Assembly (NCBI GenBank): GCA_046075685.1
Contig: JBJTQP010000092.1
Location: 861-64,860 of the forward strand
Reading direction: 5' to 3'
DNA from: Planctomycetaceae bacterium
Lineage (GTDB): Bacteria; Planctomycetota; Planctomycetia; Pirellulales; UBA1268
Length of the DNA: 64,000 nt
Both the position numbers and the translations under genes were made by a program. The notes beneath the pieces were generated by a model. That model had not been told where the DNA came from. It saw only the letters and a list, made by a program, of their open reading frames with translations, and ran no database searches. Positions 7,124 to 64,000 of this stretch are shown here, piece after piece; the stretch's first letter is position 1, and the number at the start of each line of letters is the position of its first letter.

Positions 7124-7136
7124 GCTCTACGAGCGT

Positions 7137-7778: not shown

Positions 7779-7930
7779 CCGCCCACCGTCGGCTCCCGAG
7801 CCGCCAGCCCCTGGGGGCCGGCCGCGGTCCCGGGCTGCAGGATTTTCCCCGGCGTGCCGATAATGACGGTGGTGCGGGCTGCACCGGCATCGGGCCGGAG
7901 GCTGCCCGCGACGCGCCTCGGGAGGGATCC

Positions 7931-8893: not shown

Positions 8894-8918
8894 TCATCCG
8901 TGCGGCCGCCGCCGCGGG

Positions 8919-9713: not shown

Positions 9714-9714
9714 C

Positions 9715-10413: not shown

Positions 10414-10576
10414 GTGGGGGCTCTGGGGAAAAGACCTGGGCAGACTACGCCACCGCGGCGGTGCCGTCCACGCTCGGCTTGCAACGCTCGGGTTGCCCGG
10501 GGCGGGCGAATCGCCTATCTCCCCAGCGCCGCCGCGAGGGCGATTCGGCCCGAGCGCGGCATCACGGAGGGCAGCC

Positions 10577-46168: not shown

Positions 46169-47270
46169 CCGGCCGTCCGCGGATGGTTCCGCGGATGAGC
46201 ACGTCTCCCCCCGGGAAGGACACGTCCTCCACCTGCAGCCGTGCCGGCTCGGTGAGCCCGTCCTCGCGTGCCGTCCCGCCTCCGAGAATCCTCGGGGCGA
46301 CGAAGACCCAGGCTTCGTCGACGAGATCCGCGGCGAACAGGCCGCCGAGCACGCTCGGGCCGCCCTCCACGAGCAGGTTCGTGAGCCGTCGCCGGCCGAG
46401 TTCTTGAAGCAGGTCTGCGGTGCGGTCGACCGCACCACAGGCCTGCCCGACCCAGACGTCGCAGCCGGCCGATTTCAGCGCGGCGACGCGTTCGGGCGGC
46501 GCTTCCGGGCCCGCTGCCACGAGCACCGGCACCTCCCGCGCGGTGCGGACGAGACGCGCAGCGAGGGGAAGCCGGGCCCTCGAGTCGAGCACGATCCGCA
46601 GCGGCTGCCTGGGACCTGCGGTCGCGGCCCCGGATGGACGTGCGGTGAGCAGCGGATCGTCGGTGAGGGCGGTGCCGATGCCGACGGCGATCGCGTCGAC
46701 CCTCGTCCGCAGATCGTGGACCAGCTCGCGAGACGGATGCGACGAGATCCAGCGATCCTGGCCGGCGGGGGCCGCGAAGCGGCCGTCGAGACTGATCGCC
46801 CACTTGGCGATCACCCAGGGCCGGCCCTGGGTGATCAGCGTGCGAAATGCCGCGGTGAGCCGCTCGGCTTCCGCCGCCAGCAGCCCGGTCTCGACCGCGA
46901 TGCCGGCTGCGCGAAGCGCCGCCACTCCGCGGCCCGCGACTTCGTGATACGGATCACCTGCCGCGATCACCACCCGGGTGATGCCGGCCGCCTGGATCGC
47001 CGCGGTGCACGGCGGCGTCTTGCCGTGATGGCAGCAGGGCTCGAGGGTCACGACGAGCGTCGCGCCCCGGGCACGATCACCGGCGGCCAGCAGGGCCGCG
47101 ACCTCCGCGTGCGGCCCGCCGAACCGCTCGTGCCAGCCCTCGCCGACGATCACGCCGTCGGCCACGACCACGGCTCCGACCTGCGGATTGGGCTCGACGA
47201 ATCCGCGGCCGCGGGCCGCGAGCTCGAGGGCCCGTCGCATCGCCGCCTCGTCGCTGGGCGTCAGCGCCAT
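46125..47270 (-). CDS. ribD: Bifunctional riboflavin biosynthesis protein RibD (deaminase/reductase)
   Basis: MRRALELAARGRGFVEPNPQVGAVVV...GWHERFGGPHAEVAAL...TLEPCCHHGKTPPC is the deaminase zinc motif. The C-terminus has a reductase domain. Confidence 0.92.
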   Translation of the reverse strand: MALTPSDEAAMRRALELAARGRGFVEPNPQVGAVVVADGVIVGEGWHERFGGPHAEVAALLAAGDRARGATLVVTLEPCCHHGKTPPCTAAIQAAGITRVVIAAGDPYHEVAGRGVAALRAAGIAVETGLLAAEAERLTAAFRTLITQGRPWVIAKWAISLDGRFAAPAGQDRWISSHPSRELVHDLRTRVDAIAVGIGTALTDDPLLTARPSGAATAGPRQPLRIVLDSRARLPLAARLVRTAREVPVLVAAGPEAPPERVAALKSAGCDVWVGQACGAVDRTADLLQELGRRRLTNLLVEGGPSVLGGLFAADLVDEAWVFVAPRILGGGTAREDGLTEPARLQVEDVSFPGGDVLIRGTIRGRPVISPECRGSRSASG

Positions 47271-47276
47271 GGCCGG

Positions 47277-49466
47277 TCAGTTCGGCGTCCAGATGACCTT
47301 CTTCTCTCCGGCCGGGGCGGCGGCCGATTCGCCGCCCGGCGTCCAGAGCTTGCCCGGAGCGGCGGCGCCCGTGGAAGCCGCGGGAATCCCGCCGCCGGCT
47401 GCCGGCATGCCCGGCCCGCTTCCCGCCGCGCGGCCTGCAAGCGCTGCCAGGTCGATGCCCGCCTCCATCAGCACCTCCGCGAAGGCCTGGATCACCCGCT
47501 GGTCGCGGCCATGCTCCCGGCGGACGCGTTCCAAGAGCCGGACGACGTCGGCCTCGTCCCCGCGCTGCAGCCGCACCCGGAGTTCGGCCACGTCGAGCAT
47601 GCCGTCGCTCGCCTTGAGCGCCTTCGCGAGGCCGCGGAGCTCGGCGATGAGTTCGAGCTTTCGGACACTCGACTCCGCGCGCTCTTCGAGCACGCCGAGG
47701 GCTTCCCAGCGGTCGGCCGGCGTGGCGTCGGGGCGGGCGGCGAGCGCCTCGGCCGCGAGCCCGGCCGCCCGTTCGAACCCCGCATCCTGGGCGGTGACCA
47801 GCACGCCGCGGAGGTCGTCGATCGCGAGCTTCGCCATGTCGAGCCGATGCCACCGCAGCGGCGGCACGCCGTCGTCGAATGGCGCGTGCGATTCGAGCGC
47901 CGGCGGTGCCGGGAGCCCGAGCCGTTCCCGGATCAGCGTCCACGCGGCCGACGTGTCGGGCTGCCGCGCCGTCGCCTCGCCCTCGCTCACCAGCGCCTCC
48001 ACGCGAACCCGTGCGCGAGGATCGCGAAGGGCATCGCGGGGCGTCATGCCCAGCAGTTCGGGAAGGGGCGTCTCGGGCCAGAGCGTCACGAACCGGTCGC
48101 GGGCCGCCTGCCGCTGCTCCTCGAGGAGCCGATCGACCGCCGACGGCTGGCCGGCGGCGGCCGGCACGGGAGCGGGTGGCTGCATGCGAAACTGTGCCGA
48201 CGTCAACCATGTGGTCGGGGTGACCGCCGGCAGCGAGTCGCTCGTCGTCTCGGTGCCGAACGTGCAGCCAAGGGCGGATTCGACGGCCGGCCGGGCCTGC
48301 TCGATGTCCGGGGCAAAGCCCTGGAGCACCACCTCGGGCGCGCGGTCGGTCTGACGACCGAACACCAGGAGCGTGGCGAGGAGCCGTGGCGGCGTGGCGT
48401 CGTCGTACACCCGCCATGCGGACCGCGGCGGCGCGGCGTTTCGCGCCACCCACTGGCCCCGGTCGAAGGCCGCCTGGTCGAAGCGACCGGCGTGCCGCAG
48501 CGCGTCTTCGAGCAGGTCGATCGCCGCGGAGCCCTCCTCTCCCGGCGGCACCTGCAGCGGAGCGCTGCGGCTGGAGAAGCGGATCACGGGCGAGCGATCC
48601 GGGTCGGCCTCGGTCTCGAGGGCGATCGCCCGGCCCATGGCCTCGACGGCGTCGTCGGCCGGGGTACCCGGCAGGCGGGCCACCGCAGCCCACGCCTCGG
48701 CGGCTTCGACCGGCCGGGCGAGCATCTCGCCGAGGACCGCGATGTTGGTGAACACCGCCCGCGACTCACCGGCCACGCCCGTGAGGCTGCGGAACAGCGT
48801 CAGCGCCTTGGCGAGCCGCCAGTGACGGGCGTGCTCCAGGGCTGCGTCGAAGTCGGGCCGCCACGACGCATCCTCCGCCGCGGGCTCGAGCCGCACACGG
48901 GTTCGCAGGGCGGCCGGCACGCCGGACGAGCCGACGATGGTCGCGAGCAGCCTCCGCTCCTCGTCGGTGCCCAGGCCCGCGTCACCGAGCCACTCGACGA
49001 TTCCCTGCGCGAATCCGACGTGCCCCAACTGGGCGGCGGCCTGCACGAGCGTGGCCGCGATCCGCACCAGTTCCGCCGACGCCTCACCTCCAGCCGCCGC
49101 GGCCGCGGCACGGGCCTTGTCGAACGCGGCGGCGGCCTCCTGCACCCTGCCGGCGAGCACGTCGGTGATGGCGGCATGGCCGAGCGCCAGCGGATTCTCG
49201 GGAAACGCGTCGAGAAACGCCCGGCTGCTGGCGGCCGCCTCGGCGTACCGCTTCGTGGAAAGTTCGAGCTTCGTTCGCGTCGCCATCAGGCAGGCCCTGC
49301 CCGGGTGCCGCTCCTCGAGCCGCTTCAACTGGTCCAGTGCGGCCGAGACCTGGTCGCCCTCGATCAGCGTGTCGAGCTGCTCGAGATCGCCCACCAGGTC
49401 GGCGCAGCAAAACTTGATCTTCTTGCCCGTGCCGCCGGGGCAGGGGGCGTAGGTGTCGATCGCCAT
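47277..49466 (-). CDS. SEC-C-like metal-binding motif / TPR-like helical repeat protein
   Basis: ATG at 49466 gives 729 aa. The N-terminus MAIDTYAPCPGGTGKKIKFCC resembles the SEC-C motif CPCGSGKKYKKCC. The rest is Ala-rich and helical. The stop lies 6 nt before the ribD start. Confidence 0.65.
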   Translation of the reverse strand: MAIDTYAPCPGGTGKKIKFCCADLVGDLEQLDTLIEGDQVSAALDQLKRLEERHPGRACLMATRTKLELSTKRYAEAAASSRAFLDAFPENPLALGHAAITDVLAGRVQEAAAAFDKARAAAAAAGGEASAELVRIAATLVQAAAQLGHVGFAQGIVEWLGDAGLGTDEERRLLATIVGSSGVPAALRTRVRLEPAAEDASWRPDFDAALEHARHWRLAKALTLFRSLTGVAGESRAVFTNIAVLGEMLARPVEAAEAWAAVARLPGTPADDAVEAMGRAIALETEADPDRSPVIRFSSRSAPLQVPPGEEGSAAIDLLEDALRHAGRFDQAAFDRGQWVARNAAPPRSAWRVYDDATPPRLLATLLVFGRQTDRAPEVVLQGFAPDIEQARPAVESALGCTFGTETTSDSLPAVTPTTWLTSAQFRMQPPAPVPAAAGQPSAVDRLLEEQRQAARDRFVTLWPETPLPELLGMTPRDALRDPRARVRVEALVSEGEATARQPDTSAAWTLIRERLGLPAPPALESHAPFDDGVPPLRWHRLDMAKLAIDDLRGVLVTAQDAGFERAAGLAAEALAARPDATPADRWEALGVLEERAESSVRKLELIAELRGLAKALKASDGMLDVAELRVRLQRGDEADVVRLLERVRREHGRDQRVIQAFAEVLMEAGIDLAALAGRAAGSGPGMPAAGGGIPAASTGAAAPGKLWTPGGESAAAPAGEKKVIWTPN

Positions 49467-49579
49467 GCTGGCAGTGGCTCCACGAGTCCGCGGATGAAAG
49501 GCACGTCGAACGTGGTCGAATGTACCAGAGGCGCGCGCGGGCGGAAGCCGCGGGGCCGGTTGCCCCGCGCGGAGGTGGG

Positions 49580-51034
49580 ATGCATACTTTGCCAAGCAGG
49601 CGCACGGTTGGCGGCCGGTTGTGCCCGAGGCTCGGTGTCGTGCAGCAGCCCCGCATCATCATCGTCGATTCCGCCGGCGCCGCGGCCCTGCCCTACGCGC
49701 GGCTCGTGGCCCGCCTGCAGCCGCTCGAGGTCCGCGTCGAGACGTCGCTCGACGCCGCGCTCGGGACGCTCGGCCGCGACTCGTGGGATCTCGGCGTGGT
49801 GACGGCCCGCGCGGGCCCGACGGCCGACGTGCTCCACGCGGCCGTGCGGAAGGGCGACCCGCAGCTGCCGATGGTGGTGATCGACCCGAAGCCGAGCGTC
49901 GATACCGCCCGCGCCTGCCTGCAGGGGGGCGCCGGCGACTACCTCGACATCGCCCGGGTGGAGACCGACCTCGAGGACGCGCTCGAGCGGCTGCTGCTGT
50001 CGTCGCGGCGGCGGGCCCAGGAGGAGGTGCTCCGCCGCGCGGTCGAGCGGCCGTATTCGTTCGCCGAGTTTCTCGGCGAGAGCCAGGCCATGCGGCAGGT
50101 CTACTCGGTGATCGACCGGGTGGCCACCAGTTCGGTCGACGTGCTCACGACGGGCGAGACGGGAACCGGCAAGGAGCTCGTGGCCCGGGCGATCCACTCG
50201 CGGAGCCGGCGTGCCGAGGGGCCGTTCGTGCCCGTCGACTGCGGGGCCATCCCCGACGCGCTCATCGAGAGCGAGCTCTTCGGGCACGAGCGGGGAGCCT
50301 TCACCGGCGCCGACGCCCGCCGGATGGGGCTCGTCGAGTTCGCCGACGGCGGCACTCTGTTTCTCGACGAGGTCGGCGAATTGCCGCTGCCGCTGCAGGC
50401 GAAGCTGCTGCGGGTGCTGCAGGAGCGGCGGGTTCGTCGCGTGGGCGCGCGGCAGGAGAATCCCGTCGACGTCCGCGTGGTCGCCGCGACGTCCCGCGAC
50501 ATCGATCAGATGGTGCAGCGGGGTGAGTTTCGCCGCGATCTCTTCTATCGGATCAACGTGGTCCGGATCGACCTGCCGCCGCTCCGCACGCGGGGCGACG
50601 ACATCGGCCTCCTCGCCGAGCACTTCGCCAACCGGGCGGCGGCCGAGATGGGGCGGACCGTCGGCGGGCTCTCGACCGACGTCTACCAGGTGCTCAAGGG
50701 CTACCACTGGCCGGGCAACGTCCGCGAACTGCAGAACGTGGTGCGGCGGGCGATCGCCATGACCCGGTCGCCGACGGCGGGGATCGACGATCTGCCCGAC
50801 GAGGTGGTTTCGGCCGCGGGTCGGGCCGTGGGCGCTGAAGCGGGGGCGGTCGGTTTCTTCGCGCAGCGGGCGGAGCACGTGGCCCGGTTTGAGAAGCAGT
50901 TTCTGACCGACCTGCTCGCCCGCCACCTCGGCGACGTGTCGGCCGCCGCCCGCGAGGCGCGGCTGCCCCGGGGCACGCTCTACCGGCTGATGAAGGGGCA
51001 CGGCCTCGACGGCGGGCAGTTTCGCAAGCCGTAG
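49580..51034 (+). CDS. Sigma-54-dependent transcriptional activator (NtrC/Fis family) with a degenerate receiver domain
   Basis: GGAGG lies upstream of the ATG at 49580. AAA+ motifs TGETGTGKE, ESELFGHERGAFTGA (GAFTGA) and LFLDEV are present, with a C-terminal Fis HTH AAREARLPRGTLYRLMKGHGL. The N-terminal REC-like region lacks the canonical acidic pocket and phospho-Asp. Confidence 0.88.
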   Translation: MHTLPSRRTVGGRLCPRLGVVQQPRIIIVDSAGAAALPYARLVARLQPLEVRVETSLDAALGTLGRDSWDLGVVTARAGPTADVLHAAVRKGDPQLPMVVIDPKPSVDTARACLQGGAGDYLDIARVETDLEDALERLLLSSRRRAQEEVLRRAVERPYSFAEFLGESQAMRQVYSVIDRVATSSVDVLTTGETGTGKELVARAIHSRSRRAEGPFVPVDCGAIPDALIESELFGHERGAFTGADARRMGLVEFADGGTLFLDEVGELPLPLQAKLLRVLQERRVRRVGARQENPVDVRVVAATSRDIDQMVQRGEFRRDLFYRINVVRIDLPPLRTRGDDIGLLAEHFANRAAAEMGRTVGGLSTDVYQVLKGYHWPGNVRELQNVVRRAIAMTRSPTAGIDDLPDEVVSAAGRAVGAEAGAVGFFAQRAEHVARFEKQFLTDLLARHLGDVSAAAREARLPRGTLYRLMKGHGLDGGQFRKP

Positions 51035-51093: not shown

Positions 51094-52509
51094 TCATCCC
51101 TTGCGGCCGCGGTCCCACGTGCGGCCCGCCTTGTACCGGGTGGCCCGCTCCACGAGTTCCTCGTTTTTCGTGGTCCGCAGCACCTTGTCGAGGGCCGCGG
51201 TGAACTCCTGCTTGTGCGCATCGCGGAGTTTCTGGTGGTGGGCCAGCTCGACGATGCTGGCGCAGGCCGGCTCCGCGAGCGCGGGATCGTCGAGGAAGGG
51301 CACCACGAACCGAAACGTCTCGATCGTGCGGATGGCGTTGGCCCGCTCCAGCACCCGGGCCTTGTCCGCCGTCCGCTGGCAGAGGCCCATCGTCCGCTTG
51401 AGGAGTTCGAGCTTCTCGCCGTCGTTGAGCTTGTTGTCGGGCAGCGGCGCGATGCGGATCAGCGTGCCGAGCAGAAGGTCCCTCTCCTCGGGGTTGTTCG
51501 TCGTGCCGACGAGATCGAGGAGGCGATCCTTCACGGTGGCGTCGGGCCACTTCGACAGGGCGTCGAGCCCGCGCGGCCGCTGAGCCGGATCGGCGAGCAT
51601 CGCCTCGACGATCGCCATCACCTGCGGACCGCCGACGCGGGCGAGCGCGGGGAGCAGCGTGGCCCGGGCCGCCTCGTCGGCCGCCTCGTAACCCGCCACG
51701 GCCGCGGTGGTGGCCCGCGTGGCGTCCAATCCAGTCGTGCAGGCGGCCGCGATGGCCAGTTCGGCGGCCTTGCGGTCGTCGCCCGTCGCCATCAAAAGCG
51801 AGTTCATCATCGCCGGGATCTCCGCCGCGCCGCCGAACCGCGCGAGCGCCTTCATGGCCGCCCGCCTCACCGCCGCGTCGTCGTCCACTGCGGCGGCGGC
51901 GAGCAGCGGCAGCGACTGCCGATCCCGCCGCTCGGCAAGAATGTCGATCACAGCCGGACGGGCGGCGACAGGCGCCTGCGCCGCCGCGGTGCGGATGGCC
52001 TCGGCTGCCGCCGGACCGGCGATCTCCATGAGCCCGCGGCTGGCCGCATCGCGCTGCGGCCCGTCGGCCGCCAGCGCCGCGACCAGGCTGGCGACATCCG
52101 CCGGCCCGCCGAGCCGGCCGAGCACGGCGAGGGCCGCGGCCCGGACGCGAGGCTCCCGAGTTGCCGCGAGCACCCTGCTCGCCGCGGGCACGGCCTCGGC
52201 ATCGCCCCTGTCGGCCAGCGCGAGCAGAACAGCCGCCTGCAGGTCCGACGCGAGCGTCGGCAGTCGCTCGGCGATGAGCCGCGTGAACCATGCACCGTCG
52301 AGGCCGTGGCGGATCCTGTCGAGCGCGACACGCTGCAGGTCGACGTCGCCGGACGACAGCAACGTGAGCACCTCGTCGCCCGCCTGTCGAGCGGTGGCCG
52401 AGGGTGTCTCGGCGGCCTGGAGACGAACCGCAACGGCAAGGAGCAGCAGGCATGCCGCTACGGCGATGGCATCCGGGCGGCGGCGCAGACGGATTCGGGG
52501 CGACGTCAT
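51094..52509 (-). CDS. HEAT-repeat protein, secreted
   Basis: The ATG at 52509 gives signal peptide MTSPRIRLRRRPDAIAVAACLLLLAVAVRLQA. Repeated ...VRAAALAVLGRLGGP..., ...VRRAAMKALARFGG... HEAT/PBS-lyase-type repeats are present. Confidence 0.7.
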   Translation of the reverse strand: MTSPRIRLRRRPDAIAVAACLLLLAVAVRLQAAETPSATARQAGDEVLTLLSSGDVDLQRVALDRIRHGLDGAWFTRLIAERLPTLASDLQAAVLLALADRGDAEAVPAASRVLAATREPRVRAAALAVLGRLGGPADVASLVAALAADGPQRDAASRGLMEIAGPAAAEAIRTAAAQAPVAARPAVIDILAERRDRQSLPLLAAAAVDDDAAVRRAAMKALARFGGAAEIPAMMNSLLMATGDDRKAAELAIAAACTTGLDATRATTAAVAGYEAADEAARATLLPALARVGGPQVMAIVEAMLADPAQRPRGLDALSKWPDATVKDRLLDLVGTTNNPEERDLLLGTLIRIAPLPDNKLNDGEKLELLKRTMGLCQRTADKARVLERANAIRTIETFRFVVPFLDDPALAEPACASIVELAHHQKLRDAHKQEFTAALDKVLRTTKNEELVERATRYKAGRTWDRGRKG

Positions 52510-52553
52510 GGCGATGGCTCTGGGGGGACGTTGGGGATCGTGCGGGCGGGCGG

Positions 52554-53300
52554 TCAGGATGCGACGGTGTCGTCGAGGCAGGCGAGCAGGCCGCTTCGCG
52601 CCGCCACCCGCACGGCCCGCTGCCGGTGCGTGCGCGGCACGTCTCCGACCTGCGTGGCGATCGCTGCATAGATCGGCTTGGCGGCCGTCCTTTCGCCGGC
52701 CGCCAGAAACGCGTCGGCGCACGCCAGGCGGGCATCGACGACGGCTTCGGTGGCGGGGCCCGGCGTCGGCTTCGCGGCCGCCAGCGCCGCCGCGGCCTCC
52801 GGCGTGGCGATGCGGCCGAGGGCAGCCGCGGCAGCGGCCGCCACTCCCGGTCCGCCTGCCAGCAGCGGCGCGAGCGTGGCCACGCTCGCCGCGTCGCGGC
52901 GGTTGGCGAGCGACGACAGCATGCCGATCACGAGGTCGCCGCGAACCGTGCCCACCGCCTCCCGCAGGGCGTCGGCCGCCTCCACCGCCGGGATGCGCTC
53001 CAGCGCGTAGCGGGCCATGTGCGAGTCGGCCGGATCGGCAAGCAGTGGGGCGAGAACCGGCACCGCTGCCGCCGTGCCGATCAGGGCAAGCCTGCGGCAG
53101 GCGTATTCCTTCGCCGCTCGCGAGGCACTGCCACCGACCACATCCAGGAGCCGCCGTTCGATCGCGGCGGTCAGGGCTGCGTCGCCGTGACGCTCCACGA
53201 TGGCGGCATCGATCTTCGCCAACGCTGCGGCGTCACCGCCCCAGTCGAAGGCCACGAGCGCCTGGAACTCGTCGTCGAGCGGTACTCGGTCGAAGGCCAT
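52554..53300 (-). CDS. HEAT-repeat protein
   Basis: AAGGAG lies upstream of the ATG at 53300; 248 aa. It is Ala/Leu-rich with repeats of the type ACRRLALIGTAAAVPVLAPLLADP... and AAAALGRIATPEAAAAL. The start lies 13 nt downstream of the oxidoreductase stop. Confidence 0.65.
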   Translation of the reverse strand: MAFDRVPLDDEFQALVAFDWGGDAAALAKIDAAIVERHGDAALTAAIERRLLDVVGGSASRAAKEYACRRLALIGTAAAVPVLAPLLADPADSHMARYALERIPAVEAADALREAVGTVRGDLVIGMLSSLANRRDAASVATLAPLLAGGPGVAAAAAAALGRIATPEAAAALAAAKPTPGPATEAVVDARLACADAFLAAGERTAAKPIYAAIATQVGDVPRTHRQRAVRVAARSGLLACLDDTVAS

Positions 53301-53313
53301 GGGCAATGCTCCT

Positions 53314-54594
53314 TCAGAGGGTCCAGGGTTCGCGGCGAGCGCGATCGAGCAGGCGGTTTGCCTCCTCGTCGGCCACGAACCGCTGTGCGCCACGATCCCA
53401 CTCGAGCGACCGCTCGAGTCGTCGGGCCAGGCCGATCAGGTGCGGGGCCGTCATCGTGTTGATCGCCGGCTCGAGGTCGCGGAAGGGCCGTTGCCGCGTC
53501 TTCACGCACTCGATGAAGTCGCCATAGATGCCGCCGCTGCCCCGGTAGGCCGGCACGGCCCGTGGCGGCACGGGCGAACCATCGCCACGGATCGTGATCC
53601 CCCGGGCATGCGTGAGCGCCGCCGTGGCGGTCTGGGGCCGCAGCTGCTTGGGGCGATTGCAATGGAGTTCGACGCCGTTCGGGTAGACCAGCGTGGCGTA
53701 CGGAGCGGGCGTGCCGGCGGCCGAGTCGGTCTGCCAGAGCACCTTCGTCGGCTGCAGGTCGAGGAGCCCGGCCGCGAAGATCGCGCCGCCGAAGTTGTGG
53801 GCTCCCCAGTCGGTCAGGCTGCCGCCGGAGTAGTCGATGTACGACCGCCAGCTGTTGCCCGCAGTCCCGAAGTTGCCGTCGCAGCGGCCGGGGTTGTAGG
53901 GCTCCCAGGGAGCGGGGCCGAGCCAGAGGTCCCACTCGATGTCGGGCGGTGCGGCGACGGCGGGCAGGTAGCAGGGCATCGACGAGACGCCGGCGTCGAT
54001 GTCGATGGAGCCGATCCGCCCGAGTTCGCCGGCCCAGGCCGGATCGACGATCTCGCGGTAGTCCTCCAGCACCCGTTGGCTGCCGCCTGAGACGACACGT
54101 CCGTAGCGACGGGCGGCCTGGATCATCAGCGGACCCTCGCGGAGCGTGAGCGTCTCCGGCTTCTGCAGGTAGACGTCCTTGCCGGCACGGCAGGCGGCGA
54201 TCAGCATCAGCGCGTGCCAGTGGTCGGGCGTGGCGATGTGGACGGCGTCGATGTCGTCGCGGTCGAGCACCTCCCGGAAATCCACGTGGGCGGTGCAGTC
54301 GCGGGAGTCGGAGGCCTCGTGCACGCGGGCCTGGGCATCTTCGCGCCACTTCCTGCGAACGTCGCAGACGGCCACGTACTGCACGTCGGGCCGGCCGAGG
54401 AAGGCCCGTTGGTCGAGCGACCCCATGTTGCCCAGGCCGATGCCCCCCATCACGATCCGGTCGCTCGCCGGCGGCGTGGTGGCGTCGCCGAGTGCCTTCG
54501 ACGTGATCACGTAGGGGGCGGCACAGGTCGCGGCCGCGGCGCAGGCCGATGCCGTGAGAAACTCGCGCCGCGTGGCTGAAGCCTGCGGGGCCAT
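53314..54594 (-). CDS. Gfo/Idh/MocA family oxidoreductase with Tat signal
   Basis: MAPQASATRREFLTASACAAAATCAAP is a twin-arginine signal. GGIGLGNMG forms the Rossmann motif, and VAVCDV and IATPDHWHALMLIAACRAGKDVYLQKP are present. Confidence 0.88.
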   Translation of the reverse strand: MAPQASATRREFLTASACAAAATCAAPYVITSKALGDATTPPASDRIVMGGIGLGNMGSLDQRAFLGRPDVQYVAVCDVRRKWREDAQARVHEASDSRDCTAHVDFREVLDRDDIDAVHIATPDHWHALMLIAACRAGKDVYLQKPETLTLREGPLMIQAARRYGRVVSGGSQRVLEDYREIVDPAWAGELGRIGSIDIDAGVSSMPCYLPAVAAPPDIEWDLWLGPAPWEPYNPGRCDGNFGTAGNSWRSYIDYSGGSLTDWGAHNFGGAIFAAGLLDLQPTKVLWQTDSAAGTPAPYATLVYPNGVELHCNRPKQLRPQTATAALTHARGITIRGDGSPVPPRAVPAYRGSGGIYGDFIECVKTRQRPFRDLEPAINTMTAPHLIGLARRLERSLEWDRGAQRFVADEEANRLLDRARREPWTL

Positions 54595-54691
54595 GATTGC
54601 ACTCCTCGAGTCACGTACGAGCATCCGGCTGAGGATCGTATCGCGTGGCCTGTCAGCCCACAATCGTCCGGAAGGGTGAATCCCGCCGGTT

Positions 54692-56698
54692 TCACGATGC
54701 GTCGAGCGGCCGGATCCAGACGTTTCGATACCGCACCGGGCTGCCGTGATCCTGGAGGAACAGCGGCCCCTCGCCGGTGGCCTTGAGCCGCTTCTCGATC
54801 GCCCGCAGGTGGTCGGTGACGCCGTGCCGATACGGGACGTAGGGCGACCTCGGCTCGGTGAACTCGATGCCGTCCTGGACCAGCCGGCCGTTGAGCCAGG
54901 CCGTGATCCTTCCGGGCTTCGTGATCCGGCCGTCCGGGCCGCGGCGCGGCGCGATGAACCGGACGTCGTACACCTGCCACTCGCCCGCCGGCCGCGCGGC
55001 GTTCACCAGCGGCTTGCCGAAGCGATAGAGCGCACCCTCGTCCTGGTCGGTTGGCGGCTCGACGCCGAAGGAGTCGAAGATCTGCATCTCGTAGTGCCCG
55101 TGGATGTAGAGGCCGCTGTTGCCCTGCGCCCGGGGCGTGGTCACGAACTCCGCGTGGATGTCGGCGTCGCGGAACACCGGGATCGAGACGGCGTGGTTGG
55201 CGTGCCCCTTCGACGTCCGCATGACGAGCGTGCCGTCCTCGACCTGCCAGTCGAGCGGTCCACCTGCCATGTTCGTGAACTGCGGGCCGCCCGGCTCGGT
55301 GCCGTCGCCGAAGAGGACGATCGCATGCGCAGGCGGCGGCACGGGAAGCGGTTCCTGCACCGGGCGGAAGGCCGCGTCGGCGCCGGCCCGCGGTGCGGGG
55401 GCGGCGGCCCGCAGCCTGCGGTCGGCAAGGTCGGCGAACCGCAGCCAATCCTCCTCCAGCAGGTCGTGCTTGCCGCTGCGGACGTGGTAGCCGATCGTCT
55501 TCCCGATGGGAGTGTCGACGGGCGGCCAGTCGGCCGTGCCGAGCCCCTCGAGCCCGAAGAGTGCCCAGACCGGCTCCGCGGCGACCGCTGCCAGGAACTC
55601 GCCCCGCGGGTCGGCCCAGCGGTCGTCGACGGCGCTGGCCACGTAGAGCGGCCGGGGCGCGGCCATCGCCAGCGTCACGTGGGCGTCGACGGGCAGGTCG
55701 GTCTCACGGTCGGCGTACGTGCGAAACGCCGGGCAGAACCAGTGCGGAAACCGCCTCGTGATCGCCTCCACGGTCTCGCCGTAGTTCCGCCGCTCGAGCG
55801 CCGCCCCGCCGCAGCCCGATTCGTTGGAGATCACCATGGCGAACCGCTCGTCGCAGGCGCCGGCCCAGACGGCCGCCTTGCCGTTCCGGGAGTGGCCCAC
55901 GACGATCACCTTCGTGGCGTCGACCTCGGGCAGCGTGACGAGCCAGTCGAGGATCCGCGAGAGCTGCCAGGCCCAGGTACCGATTGCGCCGGGCTCGTCG
56001 GGAGGCAGGTCGCCCTCGACCGGGCGGCCGAGCGCGGCCAGCACGCTCGCCGCGCGGCCGTCGGCGCGGTCGGGAAACACGTCGCCGTAGCAGGCGGTGG
56101 CCACACCGTAGCCGCGGCCGAGGAGCTGCTCCACCGGCCAGCGGCGGGAATGCGCCGCCCGCGAGGCCTCGGTCGCCTGGTGGTCGACGATGCCGTTCTT
56201 CGGGTCGTCGGGCAGCCAGGCCGCGCAGAGGCGGATGCCCGGGTCGGGATGCTCCGCCTGGTTCCCCTTGAAGTTGAGGTGCAGGAAGACGGGCACGGGC
56301 TGCTCAGCCTGCGGCAGGTAGAGGAGCACGTCGGTCGTGGATGCATTCGGGGCATCGCCCAGCCGCAACCGCGCCTGGAGCCGGGTGGCCTTGGTCCCAT
56401 CGGCGAGCGCGGCCTCCGCGCGAGCGACGTCACCTGCGACGCTCACGGGCACCGCCGGCAGGCGGCGGCCGTAGACGTGCTGCTCCAGCAGCGCGAACTG
56501 GTGCGGCCGCGACCTCGTCCGCCACTCCTCCGGGTTCGTCGCGGGCCGGCCGTCGGGGCCGGCGAGCACGTCAGGAAGCGTGTAGGGGCGAACCGCCCCC
56601 TCGTCGTAGTTCGCCTGCTCGGCGGCTTCGGGCGCGTCGCCAGCCATCGCGATCAATCCCCAGAGCAGCGCGGCCGCGTACCGTCGTCGACCGGTCAT
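54692..56698 (-). CDS. Fusion: CE15 glucuronoyl esterase-like domain + C-terminal DUF1080 domain
   Basis: ATG at 56698 with a signal peptide. VVGHSRNGKAAVWAGACDERFAMVISNESGCGGAA matches the CE15 G-x-S-R-x-G-K motif. The C-terminal ~210 aa (LDWQVEDGTLVM...NSGLYIHGHYEMQIFDS...LFLQDHGSPVRYRNVWIRPL) form a DUF1080 domain. Confidence 0.85.
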   Translation of the reverse strand: MTGRRRYAAALLWGLIAMAGDAPEAAEQANYDEGAVRPYTLPDVLAGPDGRPATNPEEWRTRSRPHQFALLEQHVYGRRLPAVPVSVAGDVARAEAALADGTKATRLQARLRLGDAPNASTTDVLLYLPQAEQPVPVFLHLNFKGNQAEHPDPGIRLCAAWLPDDPKNGIVDHQATEASRAAHSRRWPVEQLLGRGYGVATACYGDVFPDRADGRAASVLAALGRPVEGDLPPDEPGAIGTWAWQLSRILDWLVTLPEVDATKVIVVGHSRNGKAAVWAGACDERFAMVISNESGCGGAALERRNYGETVEAITRRFPHWFCPAFRTYADRETDLPVDAHVTLAMAAPRPLYVASAVDDRWADPRGEFLAAVAAEPVWALFGLEGLGTADWPPVDTPIGKTIGYHVRSGKHDLLEEDWLRFADLADRRLRAAAPAPRAGADAAFRPVQEPLPVPPPAHAIVLFGDGTEPGGPQFTNMAGGPLDWQVEDGTLVMRTSKGHANHAVSIPVFRDADIHAEFVTTPRAQGNSGLYIHGHYEMQIFDSFGVEPPTDQDEGALYRFGKPLVNAARPAGEWQVYDVRFIAPRRGPDGRITKPGRITAWLNGRLVQDGIEFTEPRSPYVPYRHGVTDHLRAIEKRLKATGEGPLFLQDHGSPVRYRNVWIRPLDAS

Positions 56699-56834
56699 GA
56701 TGCCTCCCCGCCGTGCCTCGGCCCGGCCCTCCCTGAGGAGATGCCTCTTGTCCTCCGCGCCGGCCTCGTGGCTCAGCACCACGCCCGCCGCGGGAGGTGA
56801 GCGTATCATCCTCCCGAAACAGGAGCGGGCGGCC

Positions 56835-58289
56835 ATGCCGGGATCGAGCACTCGACGGGCGTTCTGCCGACGGATGACGATCGCCGGCGCCACCGGGGCG
56901 GTCGCGCCGGCCTTCGGGGCGGTCGCCGCCGAGGGGCCGATCCGGCTGCGGGTGAAGGACGTTCGCACCGCGTTCCGCGACCACCGCTACCGCACGCCCT
57001 ACAAGTTCGGCGGCGTGCCGGTCGATCGCGTCACGCTCCTCGACGTGGCGATCGACGCCGAGACGCCGGCGGGCCGCCTCGTCACCGGCACGGCATCGAT
57101 GCCCCTGGGCAACGTGTGGGCCTTTCCCGCCCGCGACCTGCCCTACCAGGTGACGCTCGACGCGATGAAGTCCCTCGCAGCGGCGATCGCCGGCCGGGTG
57201 GCGGCCTGCACCGAGGCGGCCCATCCGCTCGAACTCTGGCACATGCTCGAACCAGAGTTCCTTGCGGCCGCCGGCGTCGAGGAGCGGCGGCTGGCGCTGC
57301 CGGTGCCGATCCCGAAACTCGCCACGCTGGTGGTGGCGAGCCCGTTCGATGCGGCCCTCCACGACGCCTGCGGCCGGTCGGTCGGGATGCCGAGCTTCCT
57401 GACCGTGGCCCCGGAGTTCGTGGGGCACGACCTGTCGCGGTATCTCGGTGCGGAGTTTCGGGGCGTGAGCCTCGCCGACGTGGTGCGGCCGCGGCCCGTC
57501 GACGCGGTGCCGCTGTTCCATTCCGTCGGCGGCAGCGATCCGCTCACCGTCGCCGAGGCCGACGCCGCCGACGTGCCCAGGGACGGCCTGCCGCGGACGC
57601 TCGCCGAGTGGATCGAGTTCAACGGCCTCTGGAACGTGAAGATCAAGCTCCAGGGGGAGTCGCTCGACTGGGATGTCGACCGCACGCTCGCCGTGGACAC
57701 GATCGCGCGGGCGACGCGGCCGGCCGCCAGTTGGCGATACTGCGTCGACTTCAACGAACGCTGCCCGAACGTGGAGTACGTGCTCGAGTACCTGCGGCGG
57801 GTGCGGGAGGGCTCGCCCGCGTGCCTCGAGAGCATCCTCTACGTGGAGCAGCCGACGGCCCGCGACCTCGCGGCCCCGCCGCGGAACGACATGCACGCCG
57901 CGGCGAAGCTGCGGCCGGTGGTCATCGACGAGTCCCTCACCGACCTGGAAACGCTGCTGCTCGCCCGCGACCTCGGCTACACGGGCGTGGCCCTCAAGGC
58001 CTGCAAGGGTCAGTCGCACTCGCTGCTGATGGCGGCGGCGGCACGGCGGCACGGGATGTTCGTCTGCGTCCAGGACCTCACCTGCCCCGGGGCGGCGCTG
58101 GTGCACTCGGCCGGGATCGCCGCCTGGGTTCCCGGCGTGGCTGGGATCGAGGCCAACGCCCGGCAATACGTGCCCGAGGCGAACCGCGGCTGGGAAGAGC
58201 GGCTCCCGGGGATCTTTCGGGTGAGTGATGGCACGCTGCATACCGCCGGCCTCGCCGACCGGCCCGGGCTCGGCGCGGGTGAGGGCTGA
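56835..58289 (+). CDS. Enolase-superfamily (mandelate racemase/muconate lactonizing enzyme-like) protein with Tat-like signal
   Basis: AGGAG lies upstream of the ATG at 56835. The N-terminus MPGSSTRRAFCRRMTIAGATGAVAPAFGAVAA is Tat-like. VKIKL (KxK), VDFNE, YVEQP and VVIDES match the metal-ligand/acid-base pattern of the superfamily. Confidence 0.75.
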   Translation: MPGSSTRRAFCRRMTIAGATGAVAPAFGAVAAEGPIRLRVKDVRTAFRDHRYRTPYKFGGVPVDRVTLLDVAIDAETPAGRLVTGTASMPLGNVWAFPARDLPYQVTLDAMKSLAAAIAGRVAACTEAAHPLELWHMLEPEFLAAAGVEERRLALPVPIPKLATLVVASPFDAALHDACGRSVGMPSFLTVAPEFVGHDLSRYLGAEFRGVSLADVVRPRPVDAVPLFHSVGGSDPLTVAEADAADVPRDGLPRTLAEWIEFNGLWNVKIKLQGESLDWDVDRTLAVDTIARATRPAASWRYCVDFNERCPNVEYVLEYLRRVREGSPACLESILYVEQPTARDLAAPPRNDMHAAAKLRPVVIDESLTDLETLLLARDLGYTGVALKACKGQSHSLLMAAAARRHGMFVCVQDLTCPGAALVHSAGIAAWVPGVAGIEANARQYVPEANRGWEERLPGIFRVSDGTLHTAGLADRPGLGAGEG

Positions 58290-58384: not shown

Positions 58385-58888
<504 letters not shown>

Positions 58889-61162: not shown

Positions 61163-64000
61163 CTATCGCCGCCCCATGGCCGGCGGATGCCGAGGGGTCG
61201 TGCCGTCGTCGGCCACGACCTCCAGCTCACCGTTCATCGCCCGCCAGTGGCCCGGAAACGTGCACAGGAAAGGATACATGCCCGGCTCGGACGGCAGCCG
61301 GAAGGAGATCCGCTGGCGGTCGTTGGGGGGCACCACGTCGGTGTAGGCCACGACGTCGCCGCTCCGGGGGACGTACTGCCGCGCGACGCCGTCCGGATCG
61401 AGCACCAGCGCGTCGGCCGCCGTGCCAACCCGCTCGAGCGCGCCCGGTCGGACGAGCGCCCAGTTGTGGGGCACCGTGTCCGGATTGGTCAGCGTCACCG
61501 TCAACGCCTCCCCGGGGCGGGCGCGGAGCCGCCGCGGCGCGAACGACAGGTTTGGGCCCACCGCGATCTCGATCTCGCGGGCGTCGGTGAGGTGCTTCTC
61601 GAACGGGTTGCGTTCGCGGCGGGGCCCACGGGCCAGGTCGGCCGCGAGGGGATGCGGCGGCACAGGGCTTGTCCGCGGCGCGATGCCGTCGCCCACGAAT
61701 GACGAGTCGAGGCGGTTGGCTGTGAGGAACAGGTCGTGGATCGACCCTGCAGCCGTTTCCACGGCGAGGTGGATCTGGCTCACCGGCCGGATGTCGGGCA
61801 GCTCGAGAAACAGCCCGCGGCCGTCGGCGCTGGGCACGGCGGCGCGGATCGGAAGGTGGTCATGGCCCACCATGCCCTCGTAGCGCGGCGAATACTCCGC
61901 CGAGCCGTAGCCCTCGCTGTAGCGATAGTTCCAGGCCTGGGCGACGTGCCGGGCGGGATCGCCCGCCACCGTGGGATCGAGCGGCTCCGCGAACCGCACG
62001 AGCACCCCGTTGTCGTGGACATGGAAGCCGATCGGCAGCTGCACGCCGCCGCCGTCGGCGCGGCCGGTGAACCGCACCCGCTGCAGGCAGCCGAGGTCGG
62101 GCGTGTAGGTGCCCCAGCCCGTCATCCCGCAGAGGTAGATCCCGCCGTCGACCGGCTGAAACCGCGCCCGGTGCACGCCCGAGCGAAACTCGACCGGCAG
62201 CGGCACCGCGGCTCCCTGCACTGCGTCCCCGACCCGATCGCGGAGGATCACCATCGCCGTGCCGGCCCCAAACGACGTGTGGAGCAGCGATCCGCCGAGC
62301 GGCCCCGGGGCGCCAGCGGGGATCCACGCCTGGCCGCCGGAGGAGTTGTCGAGGCCGCGGGGAAGGTAGAGCAGCGGCGGCTCGACTCCGCGGTGGGGAT
62401 CGGGGCCTCCGGACCCGAAGTGGGGAGGCGACGACGCGTCGGGCCGCACCGCGACGATCATGCTCGCAGGCACCCAGTCGCCTTCGCTCGACGGAGCGGT
62501 GATGGTGCCGTCGGGAAGGATGCCGACGCCATCGGGGTTGCGCAGGCCCGTGGCGAGCACCTCGTGGCTGCCGCCGTCGGCCGCGATCCGCAGCAGGCCC
62601 TCCACGCTCGACACCGTCACGAATCTCCCGGCTGCGTCGCGGGCCAGCCCGCAGACGTAGTCGTGGCCGCCGGACGAGCAGCGGTAGGATCGACAGAAGC
62701 ACTCGTACCAATCGGTTTCGCCGTCACCATCGCGGTCGATGAGCCGCGTGATCTGGTCGCGGCCCAGCACGTGCGGCACGCCCTCGACCACGACCAGGCC
62801 GAGCGGCTGGTGCAGCCCGGCGGCGATCCGCCGCCAGCGGACCTCTGCCAGCGTGTCGTCGATGCCGTCGATCCGCCAGACGTCGCCATGCATCGTGCAG
62901 ACGACCAGGCCGCCGTCGGGCAGCACATCGAGGTCGCCGCAGTAGAAGGCGGCATTCCAGGGATTCTTCTCTGGCAGGGCGAGTGTGTCGACGGCCCAGG
63001 GGCGGCCGTCGCCGCGGCGGCCCCGGGTGACGAGCACGTCGGGCCACTGCGGGCCGCCGCCATCGAGCATGGCCGCGTGCGGGTGGCCGTCCACCGGCGC
63101 CGCCACGCGGACAAACCGTCCGTCGACGGCGGTGCCGACGTCGAGCCAGCGGGTGCCGTTCACCGAATAGATGAATCCGACCCGCGTGCCATGACGGCAG
63201 AAGCCCTCGTAGCGGGTCGCGCCCGCCGGCGTCTTCATCTCGGGCAGCGGCAGCTGTTTGCCTTCGGGCTGAAGACCGTCCAGGAATCCATGACGCTTGT
63301 CTGAGAACCGGACGAAGCCACCCGACCACGCGATCGGCCAGGTGAGGGTGTCGGGGTCGAAGCAGGCCGCGAGTCCGGCATCGAGCCGGACGCAGACCGC
63401 GCGGGGCACGGTGATGCCGAAGCCGCGAAACACGCCCGCCTGCAGTGAGCCCGGCCGCACCTCGTTCCAGCGATTGCTCCGCCACTCGTCCTCCCACTGG
63501 TTGCCCCAGTGGCCCAGCGTGCCGCCGTCGAGGCCGGGATACGCGGGCAGGAGCCTCGGTCGCGGGCAGAGATCCCGGACGTGTCGCGCCTCCTTGGCGT
63601 AGAAGTCGTAGACCCGATCGCGGTTGATCGGCTGCTGCCAGTCGGCGAAGGCCGCGGGGTCGAGCGGCCGCCGCGCAGGCGTGAAGGCCAGCGGAGCCGG
63701 CGGGTGGGATGCGGCGAGCAGGTCGGCGGCCGTCGCGGCCGACAGGTCCTCGTGCCTGCCGAGATCGGCGAGAAAGCGGACGAGGTCGGCCCTCTCGTCC
63801 TCGGTCAGCGTCGCGATCACCTCTGTCGGCATCGACGAGCCGCCGTCGGTGCGGGACTCGATCCGGCTGCAGGGGAGCGCTTCGACCTCCCCGGTCTGCG
63901 GATCGCGGAGCCGCAGCGTGCCCTCGTGCTCGGCGTCGACGACGCCGCGGCGGCTCGTGCCGTCGTCGAGGGACACGATCGTGAGCCGATGACGGTGATC
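61163..64000 (-). CDS. Large secreted dehydrogenase-like beta-propeller protein with a C-terminal azurin-like cupredoxin domain; the 5' end lies outside the window
   Basis: The frame is open to the window edge. The C-terminus has VTLTNPDTVPHNWAL...YPFLCTFPGHWRAMNGELEVV, which gives azurin ligand spacing H...C-x4-H-x3-M. The middle resembles glucose/sorbosone-dehydrogenase-type propellers common in PVC bacteria. Confidence 0.8.
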   Translation of the reverse strand, partial: DHRHRLTIVSLDDGTSRRGVVDAEHEGTLRLRDPQTGEVEALPCSRIESRTDGGSSMPTEVIATLTEDERADLVRFLADLGRHEDLSAATAADLLAASHPPAPLAFTPARRPLDPAAFADWQQPINRDRVYDFYAKEARHVRDLCPRPRLLPAYPGLDGGTLGHWGNQWEDEWRSNRWNEVRPGSLQAGVFRGFGITVPRAVCVRLDAGLAACFDPDTLTWPIAWSGGFVRFSDKRHGFLDGLQPEGKQLPLPEMKTPAGATRYEGFCRHGTRVGFIYSVNGTRWLDVGTAVDGRFVRVAAPVDGHPHAAMLDGGGPQWPDVLVTRGRRGDGRPWAVDTLALPEKNPWNAAFYCGDLDVLPDGGLVVCTMHGDVWRIDGIDDTLAEVRWRRIAAGLHQPLGLVVVEGVPHVLGRDQITRLIDRDGDGETDWYECFCRSYRCSSGGHDYVCGLARDAAGRFVTVSSVEGLLRIAADGGSHEVLATGLRNPDGVGILPDGTITAPSSEGDWVPASMIVAVRPDASSPPHFGSGGPDPHRGVEPPLLYLPRGLDNSSGGQAWIPAGAPGPLGGSLLHTSFGAGTAMVILRDRVGDAVQGAAVPLPVEFRSGVHRARFQPVDGGIYLCGMTGWGTYTPDLGCLQRVRFTGRADGGGVQLPIGFHVHDNGVLVRFAEPLDPTVAGDPARHVAQAWNYRYSEGYGSAEYSPRYEGMVGHDHLPIRAAVPSADGRGLFLELPDIRPVSQIHLAVETAAGSIHDLFLTANRLDSSFVGDGIAPRTSPVPPHPLAADLARGPRRERNPFEKHLTDAREIEIAVGPNLSFAPRRLRARPGEALTVTLTNPDTVPHNWALVRPGALERVGTAADALVLDPDGVARQYVPRSGDVVAYTDVVPPNDRQRISFRLPSEPGMYPFLCTFPGHWRAMNGELEVVADDGTTPRHPPAMGRR

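Follow-up and report, generated by a model that had tools for sequence, protein, structure and literature searches.

Do five neighboring genes that look like the parts of one exported carbohydrate pathway in fact belong together? The question is raised by a locus in the 64-kb window analyzed here (the whole stretch of DNA under study, ~71% G+C, from a freshwater planctomycete), in which the genes for a CE15-DUF1080 fusion protein, for a Gfo/Idh/MocA dehydrogenase with a predicted signal for twin-arginine translocation (Tat), and for a shorter and a longer HEAT-repeat protein (HEAT_S and HEAT_L) lie co-directionally on the minus strand and face a divergent gene of the enolase superfamily. The initial annotation of this DNA had named the five genes, their domains, and the 136-bp gap between the divergent pair, and had proposed a common extracytoplasmic route for glucuronoyl-ester-containing glycans; genes, domains, and gap are all borne out by the open reading frames (ORFs) and by Pfam, which confirms every domain call, and the typing of the enzymes was right. 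As regards the common route, the five genes are a composite and not a fixed pathway: a three-gene core (dehydrogenase, HEAT_S, and HEAT_L) accompanied by a variable slot, which here holds the fusion and the enolase-family gene. The reading that we favor for the enzymes, with a confidence that stops a little short of even, is an oxidative (3-keto) processing of esterified uronic-acid glycans outside the cytoplasm, in which the enolase-family enzyme would act on a carboxylate sugar.

The Invariant Core and the Variable Slot

Gene neighborhoods were compared in loci anchored on the enolase-family gene (80, from reference genomes of Planctomycetota, Verrucomicrobiota, and mostly Acidobacteriota), on the fusion (80 metagenome loci), and on HEAT_S. 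HEAT_S stands after the orthologue of the dehydrogenase in 27/27 loci, and HEAT_L follows in all 23 of the 23 orthologous loci with enough flank; the invariant unit is a predicted operon of the dehydrogenase, HEAT_S, and HEAT_L, referred to below as the trio. The slot beside it is flanked in all types of arrangement by orthologues (91-100% identity) of a P-II nitrogen-regulatory protein, and its contents change. In six loci and in L001 (type A, that of the window), P-II shares a strand with the enolase-family gene, and the opposite strand carries the fusion, the dehydrogenase, and both HEAT genes, with a fusion at least 77% identical to that of the window in every case; about eight loci (type B) have the same arrangement without the enolase-family gene; in about 15 (type C) the fusion is followed by P-II on the opposite strand and then by the trio; in one (type D, L159) the fusion lies downstream of HEAT_L; in six (type F) it is followed by a convergent double-DUF1080 protein and two other Gfo genes; and in the remainder (type E), many of them short contigs, the available sequence contains neither the dehydrogenase nor the HEAT genes of the window. 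In HEAT_S-anchored loci the place next to P-II is taken by a pectate lyase (L084), an NHL-repeat protein (L085), or a lipase-DUF7133-HEAT-cytochrome c protein (L086).

All five genes are found together in only one of the 80 enolase-anchored loci (L001, 79% identity), which rules out a five-gene synteny across phyla. The enolase-family gene joined this neighborhood in the window's clade only (at least 77% identity), and it is missing from most of the loci that bear the trio or the fusion. Conservation of synteny, which had been proposed as the first check of the common route, is thus found in part: the trio is invariant and the fusion is often near a Gfo gene, and the complete cluster of five is confined to close relatives (seven loci).

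The partnership between the fusion and Gfo genes is frequent and non-obligatory, as would be expected if the DUF1080 domain depends on a 3-dehydrogenase for its substrate: of the 26 fusion loci whose flanks reach 4 kb or more to either side, 18 contain a Gfo-family gene no farther than 8 kb away. The window has a single Gfo gene in 64 kb, so this adjacency is not an effect of gene density. This closeness recurs under no fewer than five gene orders and involves two Gfo sets that are unrelated; relative to the dehydrogenase, the fusion can be directly upstream, separated from it by P-II, downstream of HEAT_L, or have the enolase-family gene alongside. The variety of arrangements is a stronger argument than the counts. 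In L159, a single co-directional string (5188-11884) carries the trio, then a xylose-isomerase-like TIM barrel, and then the fusion, with gaps of 33 and 55 bp among the last three genes and a convergent sigma-54 activator after them (Table 1). Judged by the families that it encodes, L159 comes closest, among the loci found, to a complete version of the putative pathway, with all three 3-keto enzyme types and the esterase. A hidden Markov model built from acidobacterial sequences and applied to TIM barrels in the fusion loci missed the L159 protein, and it therefore gives no frequency of these barrels near the fusion. In the type F loci (L081, 12068-16469; also L096, L111, L116, L125, and L142) the convergent protein has 632 aa with two DUF1080 domains, and the two further Gfo genes are unrelated to the window's dehydrogenase.

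An alternative explanation is that the five genes are neighbors by ancestry only, that is, that the fusion and the enolase-family gene occupy a variable slot, have separate substrates, and share no pathway. This would explain why the slot between P-II and the dehydrogenase holds different genes across relatives, why the surrounding block (sigma-54 activator, ~725-aa protein, RibD, and ~780-aa protein) is conserved regardless, and why the enolase-family gene is confined to the closest clade and has diverse contexts elsewhere. It does not explain so well why the fusion keeps close to Gfo-family genes under several gene orders and beside two Gfo sets that are unrelated, at a density of one Gfo and two DUF1080 genes in the 64 kb of the window, nor the union of fusion, trio, and TIM barrel in the one string of L159. 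We consider it unlikely, albeit with an appreciable share of plausibility; if the association were only inherited synteny, the region would be an ordinary set of exported carbohydrate enzymes.

The five ORFs are taken as real genes because hundreds to thousands of homologues were found for each protein searched (the enolase-family protein, the fusion, and HEAT_S) and because the third-codon-position G+C is high, ~0.85-0.92, in three of the five (the three passing the filter). On the minus strand the intergenic gaps are 44 bp (HEAT_L/HEAT_S), 13 bp (HEAT_S/dehydrogenase), and 97 bp (dehydrogenase/fusion), purine runs of the Shine-Dalgarno kind precede the chosen starts of HEAT_S (GAAGGAG), the dehydrogenase, and the fusion, and there is no terminator-like site on this strand between the four co-directional genes, so that their co-transcription is possible.

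Table 1. Position of the genes, domains, and intergenic region discussed, in the window and in the related locus L159.
Sequence	Feature	Coordinates	Strand	Remarks
Window	Sigma-54-dependent activator	49520-51034	+	Sigma54_activat 241 bits; convergent with HEAT_L
Window	HEAT_L	51094-52509	-	471 aa; ORF listing and start-codon inspection
Window	HEAT_S	52554-53300	-	248 aa
Window	Gfo/Idh/MocA dehydrogenase	53314-54594	-	426 aa
Window	CE15-DUF1080 fusion	54692-56698	-	668 aa
Window	DUF1080 domain (residues ~452-668)	54692-55345	-	Pfam PF06439
Window	Signal peptide and CE15 domain (residues 1-436)	55391-56698	-	OtCE15A match
Window	Divergent intergenic region, fusion/enolase-family gene	56699-56834		136 bp
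Window	Enolase-superfamily gene	56835-58289	+	484 aa
Window	P-II nitrogen-regulatory protein	58550-58888	+	Pfam P-II 119.8 bits
L159	Dehydrogenase	5188-6462
L159	HEAT_S	6547-7278
L159	HEAT_L	ends 8744
L159	TIM barrel	8799-9881		RR signal; PF01261 E=3e-39
L159	Fusion	9914-11884

The Esterase Fusion and the Dehydrogenase

The CE15 domain of the fusion (Pfam GCE_fung, 105.9 bits, cut-off 27) matches OtCE15A of Opitutus terrae (PDB 6syr, 6grw) with E=4.8e-118 through residues 25-436, ~400 residues in all, and its Ser270/Glu293/His411 align column for column with residues 267/290/408 of OtCE15A, which we take to be the catalytic triad of that enzyme. The motifs GHSRNGK (GHSRxGK) and NESGCGG are intact, the Arg of G-x-S-R-x-G, which holds the carboxylate of the uronate, is present, and the residues of triad and motifs are invariant or nearly so in 10 homologues. 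By homology, this is a genuine glucuronoyl-esterase relative with a complete predicted catalytic triad; what sets it apart from CE15 enzymes of the OtCE15A type, with which it shares triad and motifs, is the DUF1080 domain at its C-terminus.

That second domain is of the jelly-roll kind (Pfam 3keto-disac_hyd, PF06439, 103.1 bits, cut-off 26.8); it matches PDB 4qhz with E=2e-24, and its LQDHG motif (QDH) aligns with PDB 8rr2. Across 10 fusions E517, N527, E537-x-Q539, Y558, and Q649-x-H651 are invariant, and likewise GNSG. The published function of the family, for the BT2157/AL2 type, is that of a 3-keto-glycoside lyase/hydratase, and its conserved residues are Glu, Asn, Glu-x-Gln, Tyr, Lys, and Gln-x-His (bioRxiv 10.1101/2024.03.25.586180); the likeness of the window's domain to this list is at motif level only; the spacing differs, and the Lys is not placed. 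Both domains are present in 120 of the 120 fusion homologues listed (at least 67% identity), and the fusion is widespread in Planctomycetia. All this points to a true CE15 glucuronoyl esterase joined to a DUF1080 domain, with a predicted activity for the whole, and the union of an esterase with a putative lyase/hydratase directs attention to esterified uronic acids as substrates, for example in lignin-carbohydrate or algal glycans. A second DUF1080 protein, stand-alone, is encoded 47 kb from the cluster (6753-7775, plus strand; PF06439, 129.5 bits), between the genes of an ATP-binding cassette transporter and a pyridoxal-phosphate-dependent enzyme.

The dehydrogenase, whose gene has the DUF1080 gene directly upstream at 97 bp, matches GFO_IDH_MocA (PF01408, 55.3 bits) and GFO_IDH_MocA_C2 (PF19051, 76.5 bits) above the cut-offs. 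Its top NCBIfam match is the BT_2158_fam glycoside 3-dehydrogenase, with 119.6 bits against a cut-off of 750 and only over the N-terminal 279 of the 487 positions of the profile; being so far below the cut-off, it is a relative of the BT_2158 family and not an equivalog. Its best PDB matches are 8tdf and 8tdh (E=5e-23; their identity is not confirmed from the literature), followed by the C-glycoside 3-dehydrogenase DgpA, and the periplasmic enzymes that oxidize C1 match it far more weakly (E=5e-7 or weaker). Its probable activity is that of a 3-dehydrogenase of sugars or glycosides, with NAD as a bound cofactor.

The known system closest to this pair is that of the gut Bacteroidota, with the 3-keto glycoside cleavage clusters BT2156-2160 and AL1-AL5 and a Tat-signal dehydrogenase, AL3, reported to oxidize glucuronides (bioRxiv 10.1101/2024.03.25.586180). 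Common to both are the Tat-signal Gfo/Idh/MocA dehydrogenase beside an exported DUF1080 protein, DUF1080 motifs that resemble the conserved residues of that family, and BT_2158 as the best family match of the dehydrogenase, and the relative L159 adds a TIM-barrel lyase that completes the three enzyme types. The differences are that in the window DUF1080 is fused to CE15, two HEAT proteins and the enolase-family enzyme are added, the TIM-barrel lyase, the second cytosolic Gfo gene, and the DUF6377 regulator are missing, and the dehydrogenase stays at 119.6 of the 750 bits of the equivalog cut-off.

Export Signals

Export was judged by motifs and by their conservation in homologues, and the signals are hence predicted ones. 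The dehydrogenase begins with MAPQASATRREFLTASACAAAATCAAPYVITSKALG, in which TRREFL precedes a stretch of mild hydrophobicity; RRxFL is found again in the orthologues, and the score against the Tat model TIGR01409 is borderline (16.3 against a cut-off of 16.7). The enolase-family protein begins with MPGSSTRRAFCRRMTIAGATGAVAPAFGAVAAEGP, with a TRRAFC motif; of 85 full-length homologues, 76 have a twin-arginine (RR) motif and the others look like mis-called starts, and the first ~30 residues are disordered in the AlphaFold2 model. The fusion and HEAT_L have hydrophobic N-termini of the Sec type, as do their homologues, the predicted signal peptide of HEAT_L being MTSPRIRLRRRPDAIAVAACLLLLAVAVRLQA, with AE following it. 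HEAT_S starts with the motif LDDEFxALxxFDWG, conserved among 50 aligned homologues; since it is conserved and non-hydrophobic, HEAT_S appears to have no signal peptide. The initial claim that the enzymes carry export signals and that the shorter HEAT protein has none agrees with these predictions, and the chemistry of the cluster's enzymes is likely to take place outside the cytoplasm, as had been supposed.

A Predicted Exported Branch of the Enolase Superfamily

The enolase-family protein matches Pfam MR_MLE_C (38.2 bits, above cut-off), and no PDB sequence at E<=1 and no NCBIfam family. Its AlphaFold2 model (pLDDT 90.9) has the capping domain and the modified TIM barrel of the superfamily, and Foldseek gives a probability of 1.0 to many members at 14-19% identity, the top matches being muconate-lactonizing enzymes, dipeptide epimerases, mandelate racemase, and 3,6-anhydrogalactonate cycloisomerase. 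The invariant residues are K269-x-K271, D305, E338, D365, K388, D414, and E439, with K269-x-K271 and K388 invariant in 50 sequences. With strand positions taken from predicted secondary structure and not from superposition, D305/E338/D365 would be the metal ligands at the ends of strands 3-5, K269-x-K271 would lie on strand 2 (267-271), K388 at strand 6 (384-387), D414 at strand 7, and E439 at strand 8; the sequence at the end of strand 7 is QD414L, with no His. According to the model, the catalytic set is the Lys/Lys pair that resembles the muconate-lactonizing subgroup, and not the His-Asp of most acid-sugar dehydratases (mandelate-racemase, glucarate-dehydratase, and mannonate-dehydratase subgroups, which have this dyad on strands 7 and 6 or a base specific to the subgroup). 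With the muconate-lactonizing subgroup (which includes dipeptide epimerases and 3,6-anhydro-L-galactonate cycloisomerase) the protein shares fold, Asp/Glu/Asp ligands, K-x-K, and the strand-6 Lys; it differs in its 14-19% identity, in ~100 additional residues, in the Tat signal, and in having no PDB sequence match. Thus, the assignment to the enolase family made at the outset is borne out, and the acid-sugar dehydratase role that had been suggested with it is weaker, given the Lys/Lys set and the absence of a match to any known dehydratase: dehydratase becomes only one option among others, and the modeled lack of a His-Asp pair lowers the chance of a known dehydratase and may still be compatible with dehydration chemistry.

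The family is large. A word-indexed search with the protein returned 7,835 matches, and an exhaustive search 263 clusters (50% identity) at E<=1e-30 and 1,014 at E<=1e-10. Relatives of at least 52% identity carry RR signals; more distant ones (P0364-P0478, 31-46% identity, ~445 aa) have no N-terminal signal, start at the mature N-terminus, and keep all the catalytic residues. A cytoplasmic branch thus exists as well, and the exported clade appears to derive from a cytoplasmic family, also uncharacterized. To our knowledge, no exported member of the enolase superfamily has been characterized, and this family of ~260 clusters (50% identity, E<=1e-30) is without solved structure or assigned function. 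The literature searched, the coverage of which is incomplete, held nothing relevant on exported enolase-superfamily enzymes among the papers listed, no mention of a CE15-DUF1080 fusion, and no paper on planctomycete modules of Tat, Gfo, and TIM-barrel genes, which for the first two is weak evidence of novelty.

The partners of this gene in its 80 loci are, in the first place, a xylose-isomerase-like TIM barrel (PF01261; 18 loci, with 16 directly upstream and co-directional, one directly downstream, and one on the opposite strand), then a Gfo/Idh/MocA gene (13), DUF1080 (5), and CE15 (2). In the one TIM-barrel cluster examined (17 members) nearly all carry an RR or KR signal, and acidobacterial members of the enolase family recur in predicted operons together with exported TIM-barrel and Gfo genes. 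In L036 (Blastocatellia) there is an independent adjacency to a divergent 659-aa CE15 protein, a single CE15-enolase case that was judged not significant as evidence (a rough estimate, not computed).

These partners also bear on a second alternative, a periplasmic route of C1 oxidation, in which the Gfo enzyme would convert an aldose through a lactone to an aldonic acid, the enolase-family enzyme would dehydrate this to a 2-keto-3-deoxy acid (Weimberg-like), and DUF1080 would serve for binding only. In haloarchaea a Gfo/Idh/MocA xylose dehydrogenase and an enolase-superfamily xylonate dehydratase are a known combination and thereby a precedent; to this are added the Tat-exported glucose-fructose oxidoreductase and the aldose-aldose oxidoreductase among the PDB matches of the dehydrogenase, and the adjacency of Gfo genes to the enolase family in 13/80 loci. 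However, the dehydrogenase is much closer to the 3-dehydrogenase group (E=5e-23) than to the enzymes that oxidize C1 (E=5e-7 or weaker), the commonest partner of the enolase family is a TIM barrel of a lyase family and not a lactonase, a Lys stands at the end of strand 6 in place of the His-Asp pair of most acid-sugar dehydratases, and a DUF1080 domain that served for binding alone would not be expected to keep its catalytic-type residues invariant, as it does. The C1 route is, in our opinion, distinctly improbable.

Other contexts of the enolase-family gene were also recorded, and two of them likewise indicate carbohydrate enzymes that are exported. In L167 (5777-11905) its neighbors are a GH141-like beta-helix protein (PDB 9rx2, E=2e-46; BT_1002, E=1e-12) on one side and, on the other, a heparinase II/III-like protein (4-bp overlap); in L170 and L171 DUF1961 and an SASA esterase-like gene are downstream of it. 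In nine further loci (L011, L021, L024, L026, L029, L039, L041, L062, and L066) a ~575-aa protein, by eye like an acylating aldehyde dehydrogenase, is encoded ~0.1-1.3 kb downstream, in seven of them on the opposite strand.

The HEAT-Repeat Proteins

HEAT_L matches Pfam HEAT_2 with 60 bits, its sole PDB sequence matches are alphaRep/HEAT designs, and on reading its sequence no CxxCH motif was found. HEAT_S, at 25.5 bits, is slightly below the HEAT_2 cut-off of 27.7; its AlphaFold2 model (pLDDT 92.4) is an all-helical alpha-solenoid, for which Foldseek gives alphaRep designs and armadillo repeats only. The HEAT_S family comprises ~322 matches at E<=0.001, and the 120 listed have mostly 242-263 aa; the source-named homologues among the matches listed are all planctomycete, and no HEAT genes were found near enolase-family genes in other phyla, where they were looked for.

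Several origins for these proteins were considered and rejected: copies of the HEAT segment in the large DUF7133-HEAT-cytochrome c proteins (no similarity), a chaperone of the TorD/DmsD fold or an enzyme in the case of HEAT_S (Foldseek gives generic solenoids only), and recent paralogy between HEAT_S and HEAT_L (they are alike only at the weak level of the repeats). A different comparison concerns export itself. Some Tat substrates are exported with signal-less partners or have dedicated cytoplasmic chaperones, as in the hydrogenase HybOC and in the DMSO reductase DmsAB with DmsD. The resemblance is that in every orthologous locus the gene of a Tat-signal enzyme is followed, here after 13 bp, by that of a signal-less all-helical protein; the difference is that HEAT_S is a HEAT solenoid and not of the TorD/DmsD fold.

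It could also be that the trio is a core envelope or redox module of the lineage, unrelated to the breakdown of glycans, and that the fusion merely lies beside it. The invariance of the trio, its position among housekeeping genes with P-II and the sigma-54 activator at its flanks, the restriction of the HEAT proteins to this lineage, and their lack of an enzyme-like fold all agree with such a module, which would have to accommodate, on the other side, a dehydrogenase whose best matches are sugar-acting enzymes, its union with a TIM barrel and the esterase fusion in L159, and the recurrence of carbohydrate-active genes (CE15, pectate lyase, GH141-like) beside the trio. We regard this explanation as improbable. 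GH141-like genes (~30% identity to that of L167) are directly upstream of the fusion in L102, L106, L113, L135, L138, and L164. The pectate lyase of L084 (6533-7489; PF00544, E=1e-33) is another uronic-acid-directed enzyme beside the trio.

A Putative Oxidative Route

To return to the favored reading, in which esterified uronic-acid glycans are processed through 3-keto intermediates, the steps, all of them outside the cytoplasm, could be the following: (i) the CE15 domain would remove the ester from a (methyl)glucuronic acid side group; (ii) the dehydrogenase would oxidize the C3-OH of the glycoside; (iii) DUF1080 would eliminate the glycosidic bond and hydrate the product, a step that a TIM-barrel lyase may share in some relatives; (iv) the bound NADH would be recycled through the reduction of the 3-keto sugar; (v) and finally, the enolase-family enzyme would abstract the proton next to the carboxylate of the released sugar acid, with Mg2+ stabilizing the intermediate, and the outcome would be a dehydration, an epimerization, or a cycloisomerization. 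The HEAT proteins would be protein-binding scaffolds or chaperones for the dehydrogenase, and HEAT_S may either stay in the cytoplasm as its partner or be carried along as a Tat "hitchhiker". From the families and neighborhoods described we infer the substrate, the order of the steps, the reaction of the enolase-family enzyme, and the roles of the HEAT proteins.

Several observations weigh against this reading. With respect to the enzymes, the dehydrogenase is far under the BT_2158 equivalog cut-off and the window is without a TIM-barrel lyase. With respect to the neighborhoods, 50 of the 80 enolase loci have none of the partners mentioned and their contexts are heterogeneous; ~45 of the 80 fusion loci, many of them short contigs, are without the window's dehydrogenase or HEAT genes as far as their available sequence goes, and within type E there is a sub-group of ~13 loci flanked by a ThuA-like protein, a kinase, and a membrane protein; in the HEAT_S-anchored loci L084-L086 the trio is accompanied by neither the fusion nor the enolase-family gene; and eight of the 26 well-flanked fusion loci are without a Gfo-family gene within 8 kb. 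Moreover, the trio is found within a block of housekeeping genes (RibD, fumarase, and formyltransferase), for which reason part of the synteny may reflect inheritance and not selection, and related loci are not phylogenetically independent, for which reason the locus counts overstate the evidence.

A bolder form of the same idea would make the enolase-family enzyme the first Tat-exported branch of its superfamily, adding to the periplasmic 3-keto cleavage of glycosides a carboxylate-directed step (for example, the 4,5-elimination, C5-epimerization, or dehydration of a uronic or 3-keto-uronic acid) and forming, with the fusion and the HEAT-scaffolded dehydrogenase, a route by which Planctomycetota, Verrucomicrobiota, and Acidobacteriota would process esterified uronic-acid glycans without hydrolysis; in this extended form it is doubtful, and we give it low credence.

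The oxidative cleavage of glycosides through 3-keto intermediates has been described only recently, in gut Bacteroidota, and, to judge by the neighborhoods presented here, Planctomycetota and Acidobacteriota of fresh water and soil appear to use the same types of enzyme in new combinations. The two accessory HEAT proteins and the apparently exported enolase family are concrete targets.

Regulation and Flanking Genes

Scans of the divergent intergenic region found no sigma-70-like or sigma-54-like consensus, and the alignment of the intergenic regions of the closest relatives gave one short shared box only. A TAGGGTACAAC-like box is common to this region in L001, L087-L090, L148, and L155, and the window keeps it only in part, the corresponding stretch being GGATGATACGCT.

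Beyond the slot, the conserved block has the order P-II, variable slot, trio, sigma-54 activator, ~725-aa protein, RibD, ~780-aa protein, and formyltransferase. In the window (43853-51034) a ~771-aa protein, RibD, a ~772-aa protein, and the sigma-54 activator precede the trio, and the Pfam scan found no domain in the two large proteins (~771 and ~772 aa); the same gene order is present in L084-L086, L088, L092, and L093, and persists down to ~55% protein identity. Farther on, on the minus strand (61163-63976), a 937-aa protein combines DUF6797 with a C-terminal cupredoxin/plastocyanin-like domain and has no CxxCH motif.

In L082-L086 and in many of the fusion loci, too, HEAT_L has the sigma-54 activator as its neighbor. 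A sigma-54 promoter-like site, TGGCACGAGTTGTGC, with one mismatch to TGGCAC-N5-TTGC, lies ~100 bp upstream of P-II, at 58439-58453 on the plus strand; it is the sole near-consensus site nearby, in a scan whose window-wide count is not above chance. The P-II gene and the sigma-54 activator flank the trio in all the related loci.

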